A stretch of 51,332 bases of DNA from a bacterium (GCA_003251635.1 QKEW01000012.1:1-51332), one strand, 5' to 3'. Counted from the first letter of the stretch, positions 24,810 to 28,986 are shown. The notes: generated from the sequence alone by a model not told the origin. Numbers and translations are program-made.

Positions 24810-24838
24810 TTGACAAAATGTTTATTTTATGCTAAGAT
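24810..24838 (+). promoter_or_regulatory. Sigma70 promoter with extended -10
   Basis: TTGACA-17 bp-TAAGAT preceded by TGn. Confidence 0.8.
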
Positions 24839-24841
24839 GTT

Positions 24842-24968
24842 AAGTTATTTGAGATAAGCTATGTTCGAGTCGAAGCTTTTCCCTCAAAAGAAAAACTTCG
24901 TTAAAATATAGGTTTCAAATTCTTTGAAAAACAATCTCGTTTGAAAAACTTGTTTTTCGTACGCGATT
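24842..24968 (+). promoter_or_regulatory. Structured leader: hairpin, boxA-like TTCTTTGAAAA (24920-24930), then CUUG-loop hairpin
   Basis: Stem 24848-24919 (TTTGAGAT/GTTTCAAA, CTATGTT/AATATAG, CGAAG/CTTCG). The boxA resembles the Bacillus rrn boxA GTTCTTTGAAAA. Confidence 0.6.
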
Positions 24969-25026
24969 TATATATAAAACGTCTTTATTATCCAATAACA
25001 CAAAACAGGACGAAGGGAGATCAATC

Positions 25027-26394
25027 ATGAAAAAGTTTCTAGTTTATCTGTTGGTTGTTGTGTTAGTTCTGCCCAGCTTTGCTTGGGCGGGGAACGTAGA
25101 AGTTGAAGGCGATGGAAACGCCCTTGGCGTTAACATTGCCAGCGATAATAACAACCGTAACGAAAACAACCTAACGGGAATCAACACCCTTACGGGTACT
25201 GCTACGGGTACGGGTACTGCTACTGCTGGCTCCGATGCCCAAGCGGCTTCAGCCTCAGGTGCCAGTTCAACCTTAGTGAACGAAAACTTGCGCCCCTTTA
25301 CAGAGCTTCAGTATGGGACAAATTTTGTTAACCAAGGCAAGGTAACCAAACATGAAAATCTCTGGGAAATTTATATTCCAGAGCTGTATCGCCAGGGGAT
25401 TTCTTTCGAGGAAGCAAGGAATATGCGGAGCAGATTTAAGTTCTGGCATATATTTACTCCCTGGAAGTGGTTTGAGACTAAGGTCAATATAACCAAGCAT
25501 ATGGATGATGGGTTCGATAGAGAAGTTAGCGCGGCCTATCCAATGACTTATGATCCTGAAAAACATGCTATGCGTGGGGATAAAACAATTATTTCTGGGT
25601 TTGTTCCTGGAAAAGAAAAGTGGCATAACGACAGTTTCTTTGGGGAAGTTTCCTATCAGTGCATGAAAAAAGGTTCTCAGCGGTTCGTTGTCTTAAAAGA
25701 GGAAAGGGAGAACACTATTTCGGATGGTTTTTCTATTAGTCCTGGTGGTTCATCTAGCGCTGTCAATAGCGCTGGGGACAGGGCAGTGGCAGTTGCTGCT
25801 GGTGGTCAAGTTGGAAAAATAGTTACCAGCAGCGAAGAATATACGAATATGAAGTTTCGTTGCATGAACGACGGACCTTTGAATTATTCCGAGCAGGTAG
25901 TGGTCCGGCAGAAAGCCACTCCTCCGGTTGTTCAGCAACCCGAGGCGAAATGTGGTACCGAAAAGGACCTGGCTGATTTAGCTAAGGTCCAAGCTAAGAT
26001 AGACACGTGTTATCCTTATTGTGAAAACAATATGGAAAAACGCTTGGAGGCAGGGAAACTTGCTCTTCAAATCTCTCTCTGCACCGGTAACCTGGCCTAT
26101 TTGGAAGATGCAATTCAGCACTTTCAGATGGCGGAATTGAATTATCACCATGGTGTCAACACCAGAAGTGATAAATCTATCGCCCTCATCGGCGAGGTTG
26201 AATATTGGTTGGCTAGTGCCTTTTTCGAAAGGGACAAGTCAATCTCGGCGTTTTGGATCGCTCCGGAAAAGGTGAGACATGAGAACAAAAAAACCAAGGC
26301 GCATGAGTGGACAAAGACCACTCTGGAGGAGCGCAATGCCATAGAGCAGATGCGCCTAAAACTGGAAAAGTATTCCCAAAGTCTGAAGCCTTAG
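25027..26394 (+). CDS. Secreted hypothetical protein (Asn/Thr/Gly/Ala-rich N-terminus, Cys-containing helical C-terminus)
   Basis: Signal peptide ending AWA; SD AAGGGAG; 455 aa. Confidence 0.8.
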   Translation: MKKFLVYLLVVVLVLPSFAWAGNVEVEGDGNALGVNIASDNNNRNENNLTGINTLTGTATGTGTATAGSDAQAASASGASSTLVNENLRPFTELQYGTNFVNQGKVTKHENLWEIYIPELYRQGISFEEARNMRSRFKFWHIFTPWKWFETKVNITKHMDDGFDREVSAAYPMTYDPEKHAMRGDKTIISGFVPGKEKWHNDSFFGEVSYQCMKKGSQRFVVLKEERENTISDGFSISPGGSSSAVNSAGDRAVAVAAGGQVGKIVTSSEEYTNMKFRCMNDGPLNYSEQVVVRQKATPPVVQQPEAKCGTEKDLADLAKVQAKIDTCYPYCENNMEKRLEAGKLALQISLCTGNLAYLEDAIQHFQMAELNYHHGVNTRSDKSIALIGEVEYWLASAFFERDKSISAFWIAPEKVRHENKKTKAHEWTKTTLEERNAIEQMRLKLEKYSQSLKP

Positions 26395-26406
26395 GAGGTT
26401 TACATC

Positions 26407-27252
26407 ATGAAAAAAATATTACTTTTAACGGCAATTTTTTTTCTTGGGCTAAGCGTGGAAGTATTGGCGCTTAGCTCGGAAGAGGATGTGACGCTTCATG
26501 GCAATGGATCCGATGAAGCTATCATTGCGCAAGCCCAAAGTCGTCAGGTTACCATTGACAATTTTGACGAAGCAATAAGGCGGTCGACCGAGCGATCTTT
26601 GCAGATTGCTCAGGAGGCTGTCAGTGCTTCAAAAAAAGCTGCTGCTGCTGCCAATATGGCAAACAAAGCAGCTAACAAAAATGCAGCACTGGTAACTGAG
26701 TACAGGACCGACAGAGGAAAATTGGTGACAAACATTGAAGCCAATACCAATGCTATGGATGGCCTCAAAACCTCCATCAGCACCCTGGAAACCTCCATCG
26801 GTGGTCTCGAAAACTCCACTTTTCGGTGGGGTATCGGCATCGTTTGCGTTCTTGCTTTTATTTCTGCCGGATTGGCTTTTCTTTACCGAAAAGCCAATCA
26901 CATTGAGGCGAAAATCGATGCGATGCCAGGCGAAATAATCACTGACGTTGCTGCCATAATGGGAACGAACTCTGTTCCTATTAAAGTTGGCAATTTAGGT
27001 GTTTTTGATTATTATTTTGAAAGAAGGGAAGAGGGTGATGGTGACATTTTCGTCACCCTAAAGGTGGATGAAAAAAATCCTTCACAAGGGGTTTACCTGA
27101 CCAGGGATATGAAAACCTTGATCAGGGATGCCAAAACCGTACTACGGCGCCATTTCCTTAGCCATCAATACGATGGCGAGGGAGAATTCAATGCCGCTCA
27201 GCGAGCGGTTATCGAGGGAGCCATTTCAAATGGTACTCTCAAAGAAAGATGA
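26407..27252 (+). CDS. Single-pass membrane protein with extracellular coiled coil
   Basis: Signal peptide, Ala-rich coiled coil, TM WGIGIVCVLAFISAGLAFLY and cytoplasmic domain; SD AGGAGGT. Confidence 0.8.
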   Translation: MKKILLLTAIFFLGLSVEVLALSSEEDVTLHGNGSDEAIIAQAQSRQVTIDNFDEAIRRSTERSLQIAQEAVSASKKAAAAANMANKAANKNAALVTEYRTDRGKLVTNIEANTNAMDGLKTSISTLETSIGGLENSTFRWGIGIVCVLAFISAGLAFLYRKANHIEAKIDAMPGEIITDVAAIMGTNSVPIKVGNLGVFDYYFERREEGDGDIFVTLKVDEKNPSQGVYLTRDMKTLIRDAKTVLRRHFLSHQYDGEGEFNAAQRAVIEGAISNGTLKER

Positions 27253-27267
27253 TGCTAACCTTTTTCC

Positions 27268-27564
27268 TGGGAGCCCGTATTCTAAAGGGTGCGGGCTCCC
27301 ACCCAGTAGCTCGAAACAGAGATTATCTGAGTGAGATCTCTGGGCTCAACCACTTTGCTGTTTGCGGGTGGTGATGATTTTCCTGATTGGGAATCATCAA
27401 TTGCGATATATCTTATTCATGAATTGGTAAGATATATCCGAGTGTAGTACTCAAGGCGTTTTATCCGAATTTGAAAAAAAGCTTCCAGGCTTGAGAGTCT
27501 CAATTGACACTCGCCGGAAGTGAACCTATATAAAAGACCTGATCCAAATGGAGAGGGTCTTTTA
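27268..27564 (+). ncRNA. Candidate structured RNA (serial hairpins ending in a terminator-like stem)
   Basis: About eight abutting stems whose wobble pairs work as G-U only on the + strand; no credible ORF. Confidence 0.55.
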
Positions 27565-27611
27565 AAATTGTTTGAAAATTGAACTTTTAATCTTATTTTA
27601 TTCAATTTTAT

Positions 27612-27648
27612 CCTCACCTTAGCCCTTTCCCTGCTAGGGAGAGGGGGA
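27612..27648 (+). repeat. BoxC-like pyrimidine tract plus hairpin element
   Basis: CCTCACCTTAGCCCTTTCCCTGCTAGGGAGAGGGGG resembles the CCCTCACCCTAACCCTCTCCC...GGGAGAGGG dispersed repeat; single copy in this window. Confidence 0.5.
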
Positions 27649-27718
27649 ATCAGAATTTTTTTGCAAATCCATCGTACTAAAAAACTAAAAACCTATGAGC
27701 TAAAACCTGCCAGACTGC

Positions 27719-27747
27719 TTGACAACTGGCTGATTTTTTGCTACAAT
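27719..27747 (+). promoter_or_regulatory. Sigma70 promoter of the polysaccharide locus
   Basis: TTGACA-17 bp-TACAAT with an extended TG; implies the real start of the next gene lies downstream. Confidence 0.8.
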
Positions 27748-27792
27748 AGAATGTTAAAAAACATTGATTCTAAGCGTTATTTCTTGAATTTA

Positions 27793-28986
27793 ATGAGCGA
27801 AAAAAATCGAAAAAAATTACTCAATTTTCAAAGCCGTTTGCAAAAGCGGATTTTGGTGGTGGGTATAATTTTTACTTTGACTGCCGGCTTTATTTTCCGT
27901 GATGCTTTTAATGAATATGAAGCTCGCATTCAAATGGTAGCTGCCAGCAAGAATGCAGAACTTTCGGATCAGATGGAAGCAGTGTCTGAAAATTTGATTG
28001 AATTTCCCAAGACCTTGGCTTTCTATGAAAGGCTTTTGAAAAATAACCCAAACATTCAAGATGGTTTTGAAGATTTGAGTGCGCGTGAACGCAAAAAACT
28101 TTGGAACGATCAAATTGAAACTTCTGGACGGATTGTTAACAATCGAGCCTGGCTTAGCTTGTCAGTTTTCAGTCGGAAAGCTGCTAACGCCGATGCTTTG
28201 TCTGAAAAAGTGGCTGATAGCTTGATTGAAGTGATGGGAAATTTTTATGACACTGATAAAGATTTGGCTTTGGCGGTTGTAGAAGGCCCGATTGTTTATT
28301 CAGTAAATCGTCATTGGATCAAAGTCGGTTTGCTTTCAATTTTGATCGGATTTTTAGCCTCATTGATTTTGAATTTAATTTTAGAGGGTTGGGAAAAACA
28401 AAATAGAGAATCAAAAAGTTTTTTTCAAAAATCACTTTTGAATTTGCAAGAAAAAATCATTGCCAAAAATTCTTTATCTCAAAATATGGTAGCAACAACC
28501 GACGTACCCTATAGTTTTGATGATCGACAAAAAGCTGAAGAAAAAAACATCCAAACGGATGAGAATTATTTTGCTGACAAAAAAATTGCCGATCAAGGTA
28601 AAAGTGCTGCAGCTCCGGATAATCTGCCAATTTTTGAAGAGATTCCTGGTTTGACCTTTCAAACTGAGCCGATTGTTGAGAAACAAGAAAATATTGAAAT
28701 TGAAAAAGAGGAAAATATCACACCGATCAAAGAAGAATCGGAAATTGAAAAATTGGAAACAAAAGAAGATGTGATGGAGATGCCTAATTTCCAATCCGAA
28801 GAAACTTTTGGTTTGCCGGACAATTTGCCAACGGCACCGGACAGCTTGCTGGGAAATTTGCCGGTGGCAGAGGTCGAAGAAAAAGAGGAGAAGGAACCTG
28901 ATTTTATTGAAATGAAAGACAATGAACCGACAGCTCAGGAAATGAAAGATCGATTGAACAAACTTTTGCGAGGAGATCTGCCCTAG
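27793..28986 (+). CDS. Wzz/CpsC-like polysaccharide co-polymerase with long acidic tail
   Basis: Two TM segments flanking an ~135-aa external domain; Glu-rich tail with PDNLP repeats; first gene of the sugar locus. Confidence 0.55.
   Translation: MSEKNRKKLLNFQSRLQKRILVVGIIFTLTAGFIFRDAFNEYEARIQMVAASKNAELSDQMEAVSENLIEFPKTLAFYERLLKNNPNIQDGFEDLSARERKKLWNDQIETSGRIVNNRAWLSLSVFSRKAANADALSEKVADSLIEVMGNFYDTDKDLALAVVEGPIVYSVNRHWIKVGLLSILIGFLASLILNLILEGWEKQNRESKSFFQKSLLNLQEKIIAKNSLSQNMVATTDVPYSFDDRQKAEEKNIQTDENYFADKKIADQGKSAAAPDNLPIFEEIPGLTFQTEPIVEKQENIEIEKEENITPIKEESEIEKLETKEDVMEMPNFQSEETFGLPDNLPTAPDSLLGNLPVAEVEEKEEKEPDFIEMKDNEPTAQEMKDRLNKLLRGDLP

Follow-up and report, generated by a model that had tools for sequence, protein, structure and literature searches.

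A conserved hairpin array downstream of a fast-evolving membrane-protein gene is a candidate structured 3' untranslated region

Stem-loops that stabilise mRNA from the 3' side include the REP/BIME elements of malE-malF and the intercistronic hairpins of the puf and pap operons. Sponge RNAs of the CsrB/RsmZ type are independent genes, with promoters of their own and GGA loops. Short loops can also be read by a protein domain, as in the case of the Rnt1p dsRBD, which recognises AGNN tetraloops atop an A-form stem. In the CcsR RNAs of Rhodobacter sphaeroides the loops are conserved and the stems vary, the conserved loop being a C/U-rich anti-Shine-Dalgarno sequence. According to passages of PMC8034643, these 'cuckoo' RNAs, CcsR1-4, are tandem hairpin RNAs that lie in the 3' UTR of a protein gene, ccaF1, and CcaF1 both takes part in their maturation and binds them directly.

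The locus described here consists of a gene, designated ORF2, and a tail of mostly abutting hairpins behind it. Its nearest described system is ccaF1-CcsR1-4, where a protein gene is likewise followed by tandem hairpins in its 3' UTR. The differences are considerable, however. ORF2 encodes a 281-aa signal-peptide and transmembrane protein without a Pfam family, whereas ccaF1 encodes a 71-aa DUF1127 protein; the loops of the ORF2 tail are mostly 3-5 nt long and differ between genera, whereas the CcsR loop is conserved; and the ORF2 array, unlike that of ccaF1, is preceded by a clamp hairpin, P1. Identity with a ccaF-CcsR (cuckoo) RNA was rejected, as DUF1127 is absent and Pfam has no family in either ORF2 or the alignment of its C-terminal domain.

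Similar mixtures of likeness and difference are found in the other comparisons. Like the REP/BIME, puf and pap stabilisers, P1 is a stable hairpin without a U tract just past a stop codon, and hairpins in this position could keep off 3' exonucleases and fix how strongly neighbouring genes are expressed relative to one another. REP elements exist in hundreds of dispersed copies, whereas the ORF2 tail occupies a single locus, and the stabilisers comprise one or two hairpins, whereas the ORF2 tail is a whole ordered array with conserved, genome-typical loops. With CsrB/RsmZ the array shares many hairpins, variable stems and a recurring short loop motif, but it has no promoter of its own, its loops are not GGA (an AGGA loop in one relative, G019, excepted), and the motif changes between genomes; a sponge RNA of this kind was therefore rejected, there being no strong promoter within the gap and GGA in that one listed loop alone. 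The ORF2 tail is undescribed as an element and kin to structured 3' UTRs and hairpin-array RNAs, and at least ten genera have kept both its place and its architecture. Almost nothing is known of RNA-level regulation in the Candidate Phyla Radiation (CPR), and Rfam is without this element.

The window, by which is meant the whole stretch of DNA analysed (51,332 nucleotides, contig C5:1-51332), belongs to a genome of 906,704 bases on 18 contigs with 38% G+C. From this size, the gene content and passages of PMC6744442 on these families, the organism is likely to be a member of the CPR/Patescibacteria. Two genes on the + strand precede the gap that holds the array. The first (25027-26394) encodes a 455-aa protein with a signal-peptide-like N-terminal start and no Pfam family, and the second, ORF2 (26407-27252), encodes a signal peptide, approximately 110 residues outside the cell, a transmembrane helix (residues 138-164) and a cytoplasmic C-domain (26899-27249). 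The pairing of a secreted with a membrane protein that the sequence-only reading had proposed is therefore upheld, as is the co-orientation of the gap with both genes. This two-gene unit has a promoter of its own, by consensus match only, in the promoter-like TTGACA-17-TAAGAT, with TG, at 24810-24838 on the + strand (10 of 12 consensus matches). A strong promoter, TTGACA-17-TACAAT, again with TG, lies beyond the gap on the + strand at 27719-27747 (11 of 12 matches), ahead of a gene for a 397-aa protein (27793-28986), and a TTGACA-17-TAnnnT sequence is found at the same position in relatives. Because the promoter at 24810 precedes the unit and the near-consensus promoter at 27719 follows the gap, the gap is likely to form the 3' end of the two-gene unit. 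A promoter scan found no promoter within the gap, and, by its position, the gap would be transcribed with the operon unless P1, which lacks a U tract, terminates.

The presumed 5' UTR of the unit (24845-25026, + strand) contains two boxA-like words 17 nt apart within 24920-24949, TTCTTTGAAAAAC at 24920 and its near copy TCGTTTGAAAAAC at 24937, and we take both to resemble boxA of the Gram-positive type. In this genome TTCTTTGAAAAAC is a low-complexity word, with 2 exact copies and several hundred sites within 2 mismatches, and the 16S leader of the same genome carries merely the looser ACTTGAAAACAG. The 455-aa protein is matched in 15 of 41 genomes, at up to 46% identity over residues 292-453. 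Its C-terminal portion of about 160 residues is best conserved (46% in G004 over residues 292-453, 42% in G015 over residues 300-453), and longer matches starting near residue 50 have 29-33% identity in G022, G005 and G016. A sortase and a DUF4012 protein are encoded near the locus, and in G033, from one other family, a sortase gene is again found directly upstream. Passages of PMC13278184 on the Pam pilus operon held nothing that links that operon to the locus.

The minimum free energy (MFE) fold of 27253-27580 on the + strand contains all eight stems that had been read from the sequence of the gap. P1 (27268-27301) has 15 bp, of which 3 are G-U, with a UAAA loop, and is followed by CCCACCCAG. 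The left part of the array continues with four middle hairpins, H2 (27302-27344, loop GAUUA), H3 (27349-27372, loop UGUUU), H4 (27373-27398, loop CUGAUU) and H5 (27405-27438, loop UGAAU), none of which, like P1, has a U tract. The right part consists of H6 (27440-27452, GAGUG-UAG-UACUC), a weak stem at 27459-27476 and H7 (27481-27521), all on the + strand as are the others. A terminal hairpin with an interrupted U tract (27531-27575, + strand) closes the array and is the presumed intrinsic terminator of the unit; its stem (27531-27564) is followed by CUUUUAAAAUUGUUU, and a transcript would read UUUU AAAA UUGUUU from there. This stem was missed by a simple terminator scan because it is followed by just 4 consecutive U, although it is positionally equivalent to the canonical GGTCTTTTTGTTTG terminators of relatives.

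Such a degree of folding is well beyond chance. Compared with 100 dinucleotide shuffles, none of which folded as well, the + strand MFE of 27253-27580 is -123.7 kcal/mol versus -83.7 +/- 5.2 (z = -7.65), and it lies about 3.8 standard deviations beyond random 328-nt windows of the same genome (n = 491, mean -67.5, sd 14.6). In a genome-wide scan for local hairpins on both strands, the gap ranked first of 60,064 windows, at the end of a continuous tail (top score -119.6, then -118.1 and -115.6), the other top-ranked windows being coding sequence, rRNA-like windows of high G+C, or single terminators. Downstream of the array, a 10-bp hairpin, CCCUUUCCCU-GCU-AGGGAGAGGG, with a T7 run after it (27623-27668, + strand, -17.2 kcal/mol, CCTCACC upstream), is a possible back-up terminator of the unit. 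The stretch 27612-27649 is matched by 3-4 other contigs of low depth, likely from the source metagenome, with 3-7 differences and dissimilar flanks, and in G004 the array terminator is followed by a word very similar to the 27612-27668 hairpin, in inverted orientation. The only mechanical ORFs that extend into the gap are two, at 27128-27334 (+) and 27417-27617 (-).

Known families do not account for the array. A covariance-model search of Rfam 15 (4227 families), which counted as a match any score that reached the curated gathering threshold, found none in the whole window or in 18 homologous loci, and a permissive search of 27100-27800 (E up to 10) returned three matches at chance level, with 17, 14.7 and 10.8 bits versus gathering thresholds of 50, 48.5 and 120. 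The array is single-copy in the genome of the window, G000. Outside the arrays of G016 and G033, the GAUA hairpin word of these two relatives was met in coding sequence or in -10 boxes alone, and since the word is undispersed there, the array hairpins are not REP-like repeats; with one copy in G000 and no spread in G016 or G033, identity with a dispersed repeat of the REP/BIME type is out. A ToxI-like RNA of a type III toxin-antitoxin system was likewise rejected, as a direct-repeat search of 27200-27700 yielded merely short families of 2 copies; no Pfam toxin family was found among the proteins neighbouring the gap. The core motif of an integron attC site is GTTRRRY. No such core was seen at the P1 end in the window sequence, and no integrase among the 8 neighbouring proteins scanned.

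Relatives of the array were reached through the genes around it. With the 281-aa ORF2 product as query, only the protein itself was recovered among 5.8 billion proteins and in 41 genomes, and DNA searches of 41 and of 33 related genomes returned short chance or promoter matches alone. Both genes flanking ORF2 and the gap have homologues in the family, however, and the locus is syntenic, with a 455-like gene, ORF2, the gap and a 397-like gene in that order. The ORF2 position is occupied by a fast-evolving family of weakly related proteins, to which the window protein aligns, with a signal peptide, about 110 residues and one transmembrane helix; long-form members have in addition a cytoplasmic C-domain of 110-175 residues. 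A profile of this C-domain matched 17 of 33 genomes of the family and, in a sample of 201 genomes of the order, 20, and outside the family the domain is almost confined to one further family.

The DNA after the ORF2 stop codon was inspected in all 21 genomes with a C-domain, and the tail proved to be kept at the same locus, 19 of the 21 sharing an architecture of P1 without a U tract, 3-8 small hairpins (6-13 bp, mostly abutting) and a terminator. Canonical + strand terminators, for instance GGTCTTTTTGTTTG or GCTGTTTTTTCG, close the arrays. The exceptions are G001, with a terminator alone, and G187, where P1 is followed by a T run. The structured tail measures 230-415 nt and is found at one locus in at least ten genera of two or three families; against shuffles, the homologous arrays have z-scores of -2.6 to -9.4 (n = 17), 16 of which are -4.6 or lower. 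In contrast, none of the four short-form loci (G022, G017, G002 and G032), in which ORF2 ends at the membrane helix, has an array, the gene being followed by a plain terminator alone; this count leaves out 11 genomes of the family without a C-domain match. This co-occurrence of C-domain and array could go back to a single deletion or a few, and the genomes share ancestry. No relative was confirmed by a metagenome scan in which the 397-aa protein was the query, and a metagenome scan with the P1 pattern gave at least 120 matches, among which 80 loci were examined and none encoded a C-domain; six low-G+C loci from these matches had no array.

Evidence for selection on RNA structure comes from P1. 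This hairpin is homologous across genera, in the window and 10 other genomes, with the consensus GGGRGYCYGRA...UYCRGRCYCCC-AC, and it is positioned 6-28 nt past the stop codon. In relatives it has 11-21 bp and no U tract, and is usually followed by AC or an A-rich sequence; the CCCACCCAG that follows it is common to the window and G016. Changes on both sides of a pair are seen in 6 of 13 pairs of a six-sequence alignment. The corresponding number for eleven sequences is 10 of 13, with 90.8% of cells paired, counts that lean toward structure because 5 of the 11 sequences were found with a model built on that structure. The covariation was reached by none of 500 shuffles, and slid controls scored 0.03-0.15 versus 0.47. 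The P1 model has one strong match per genome (E < 1e-4), always at the syntenic place, and it scores higher on the sense than on the antisense strand in 9 of 9 loci, including all 4 non-seed loci. It is for P1 alone that selection at the RNA level is firmly established.

For the remaining hairpins the position is different. BLAST between genera finds little in common beyond the P1 arms, the terminators and the promoters, and the middle hairpins cannot be aligned between genera. In the G019/G006 pair, changes outside P1 number 14 that keep the structure versus 19 that break it, with similar values in slid controls, and RNAalifold finds 2 double changes in 102 pairs, a count biased to pairs that fit both sequences. 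Because the small hairpins show no clear excess over slid controls, formal covariation support is limited to P1; covariation among homologues thus supports P1 and does not extend to the middle of the array.

A tail whose sequence turns over freely while its hairpins persist is what would be expected if the structure served simply to protect and insulate the 3' end of the message, slowing 3' exonucleases, keeping Rho and nucleases off the tail and separating two strongly promoted units, with no factor that reads the loops. Stem-loop stabilisers at mRNA 3' ends, such as REP in malE-malF, are established biology, and the position of P1 just past the stop codon, its lack of a U tract, the terminator that closes the array, the strong promoter after it and the heterogeneous loops of the window all fit such a role. 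We nevertheless regard protection alone as a rather unlikely account of the tail. It offers no explanation for the plain terminator behind short-form ORF2 genes, and four to eight extra hairpins exceed the known need of protection. Neither does it explain the behaviour of the loops. Were it to be correct, the tail would still stand as a clear example, in a minimal genome, of selection that maintains structure and not sequence.

The loops of the small hairpins are short, most of them 3-5 nt, and they are alike within a genome while differing between genomes. Pairs of identical loops make up 13 of 189 within genomes versus 26 of 3196 between genera, a difference reached by none of 2000 label shuffles, and it is this likeness that 3'-end protection leaves unaccounted for. 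GAUA or AUA loops, for instance, are found in G016, G044, G005, G033 and G041, C-UAU-G loops in G021 (four hairpins) and G065, CC-AGA-GG loops in G003 (three), CCU or CCCU loops in G046 and G004, and AAWY loops in G045 and G008. Like loops sit on differing stems. In the case of G021 and G065, UAU loops are carried by quite different stems and the C-domains are 32% identical, and the retention of loops on unrelated stems at this level of protein identity is again unexplained by protection. In the window, by comparison, the middle loops UGUUU, CUGAUU, UGAAU and UCAAUU include no identical pair, and with GAUUA they are just loosely alike. Within-genome likeness could also arise from local duplication.

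A 9-nt loop, UAAAACACU, recurs in G019, where it is present three times, once in the terminator. In this genome (locus L053, array at 280-410) the three hairpins, terminator included, have identical UAAAACACU loops on different stems; G006 is without the full UAAAACACU, one site being partly deleted and the terminator loop being UAAAACUUU. A role of UAAAACACU as an antisense seed was rejected, as its complement is absent from the 4.8-kb locus of G019.

A loop of this length would suffice for target pairing, and it bears on the proposal that the tail is cleaved, for example by RNase III within P1 or else between the hairpins, to yield one or several stable hairpin RNAs that act in trans like CcsR1-4. 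The ccaF1-CcsR layout, of which passages of PMC8034643 give an account, is similar in that tandem hairpins follow a protein gene and share a single terminator. The genome of the window encodes, in the region C7:37664-37858, one dsrm-domain protein, presumably RNase III, which could cut P1. A source of small RNAs seems distinctly improbable all the same, since most loops are too short for antisense pairing, the loops are not conserved between genera as known seed regions are, UAAAACACU finds no complement in its own locus, and no internal promoter was found.

The reading that we favour, tentatively, is that the gap is a structured 3' UTR module, specific to this lineage and carried in cis by the long form of ORF2, a gene for a bitopic membrane protein, and that in this module P1 acts as a clamp and the small hairpins as a docking platform. 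RNA polymerase would start near 24810, transcribe the 455-aa gene and ORF2, continue past P1, a hairpin without a U tract, and past the small hairpins, and stop at 27531-27575. P1 might then hold off 3' exonucleases as a clamp, or serve as a site of double-strand processing, and the short loops of the abutting hairpins would offer docking sites to a factor that the same cassette encodes. The module would act in cis on the stability, the processing or the membrane tethering of the ORF2 mRNA.

The most economical candidate for the docking factor would be the cytoplasmic C-domain of ORF2 itself. The domain has no family in Pfam, the ESM Atlas returned nothing for it, and a profile search extended to longer proteins gave 3 matches, all unannotated. 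A confident AlphaFold model (AF2, from a 13-sequence alignment; pLDDT 82.7) runs through five strands and two helices to a final strand. Foldseek against the PDB returned nothing better than E 0.45, and the best match of VIA-align, the dsRBD of plant HYL1, has a Z of 3.5, which by the guidance of the tool falls below the level that unrelated folds attain. About 12 of the top 50 VIA-align rows are dsRBDs, with Z of 3.5 or lower, over model residues of approximately 28-92. An hhalign comparison of the C-domain with the dsrm domain (RNase III dsRBD) of the same genome gave a probability of 0.3%. Unlike hairpin recognition by the Rnt1p dsRBD, therefore, a comparable role of the C-domain has structural matches that all stay at Z of 3.5 or lower and no similarity in sequence or profile, and the dsRBD likeness of the model may be taken as a lead only.

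In a more specific version, which we consider unlikely, ORF2 and the left array part would be a cognate protein-RNA cassette. The C-domain would bind the loops of its own 3' UTR and so tether the message to the membrane or auto-regulate it there, and cassettes of different loop type (GAUA, UAU, AGA, CCU, AAWY and others) would have been swapped between genera of ultra-small bacteria. Loop type correlates with C-domain relatedness by one metric, apical 4-mers, which was the second used (r = 0.205, reached in 40 of 5000 permutations, significant), and not significantly by exact loops (r = 0.078, 1005 of 5000). Shared descent of the cassette would explain such a correlation without any functional link. 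A literature search for a membrane-anchored RNA-binding protein with a self-encoded hairpin array yielded the CcaF1-CcsR case alone, in which the protein is soluble. To our knowledge, such a pairing of membrane protein and hairpin array is undescribed in bacteria. Docking of the protein on its own hairpins would represent a new coupling of a membrane protein to its own message, and would provide a natural set of orthogonal hairpin-protein pairs.

Comparison of the arrays reveals a mosaic. The left part, made up of P1 with the middle hairpins, tracks ORF2 type across genera, as evidenced by 74% identity between G045 and G008 (different genera), 72% between G016 and G033 (different families), and a group formed by G046, G047 and G004; the best matches of the C-domains agree with this grouping. 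The right part, comprising the last hairpins and the terminator, tracks the host genus, with 84-86% between G045 and G016/G046, 85% between G008 and G015, and G033 resembling G072 and G065. ORF2 types do not follow genus boundaries. Contigs of a related strain from another study (run X4) differ from the window by a single substitution and one inserted T over 27452-27572, and in one place over 27604-27895, at a low depth of 3-4; left of 27452 this strain is unlike the window, with a break near 27441-27452. Because the left part follows ORF2 type and the right part the genus, the left half of the array is likely to form, together with ORF2, an exchangeable cassette or an old polymorphism. In the window, the left part (27302-27438) is probably linked to the ORF2 cassette, the division being drawn from the array comparisons and run X4. 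The tail thus travels with a hypervariable envelope-protein cassette that crosses genus boundaries, its sequence turning over while the covarying clamp and the genome-typical loops persist.

The strand on which the structure acts is less evident from folding. The sequence-only reading had held that wobble pairs work on the + strand alone, and had taken this as a sign of selection at the RNA level, proposing an undescribed non-coding RNA or a processed array of small RNAs. In the window the G-U count does favour the + strand (14 versus 4), as does the MFE (-123.7 versus -104.2), but across 12 homologous arrays the G-U counts are 83 versus 73, and 3 of the 12 fold better on the - strand. The z-score of the - strand in the window (-7.05) is also far beyond chance and close to that of the + strand. 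Because the - strand folds nearly as well and G-U pairs are balanced over the 12 arrays, an RNA-level role is unproven by structure alone. An undescribed element is supported by the lack of an Rfam family and by conservation at the locus, whereas strand specificity by wobble pairs is not general.

The folding of both strands, with no overall G-U asymmetry, invites the explanation that the palindromes have no function in RNA, and arose from or serve recombination at the edge of an ORF2 cassette that can be swapped, or act as cruciforms or single-strand hairpins for a recombinase. The mosaic breakpoints inside the arrays and the crossing of genus boundaries by ORF2 types would be in keeping with it. 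Yet the loops are asymmetric, and in the arrays of the GAUA class they always have one orientation, GAUA and never UAUC; the P1 flanks score higher on the sense strand in all 9 loci; there are no dispersed copies, and no recombinase family was found among the 8 neighbouring proteins scanned; and the breakpoints lie in the conserved right part, as plain homologous recombination predicts. A purely DNA-level feature is, on this evidence, very improbable.

Other structures occur in the vicinity of the arrays and elsewhere on the contig. In six loci (L043, L044, L048, L078, L079 and L094) a near-perfect hairpin of 10-25 bp is positioned between the array terminator and the next promoter, its 3' arm abutting the -35 box TTGACA of the downstream gene, for instance GCCTGCCCGC..GCGGGCAGG-TTGACA in G016. 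The 5' UTRs of the downstream genes hold words that are highly conserved across genera (L046 gap 256-290 with L054 gap 501-535; L048 with L049; L049 with L050). One such word, a 35-mer made up of repeats of the ATTCGTA type, has 97% identity in a comparison of two genera, and others are TTTGTAAAAAGGTTGTAGTAT and ACCCTGTTAAATAAT...GCAAAATTAAGATT; these words may be leader elements. Outside the window, at C5:97100-97620 of G000, two - strand ORFs are separated by approximately 520 nt that reach, on the - strand, a folding energy of -151.5 kcal/mol over 451 nt and close with a clean terminator; this stretch may represent a further candidate structured RNA or, alternatively, a small gene rich in cysteine codons.
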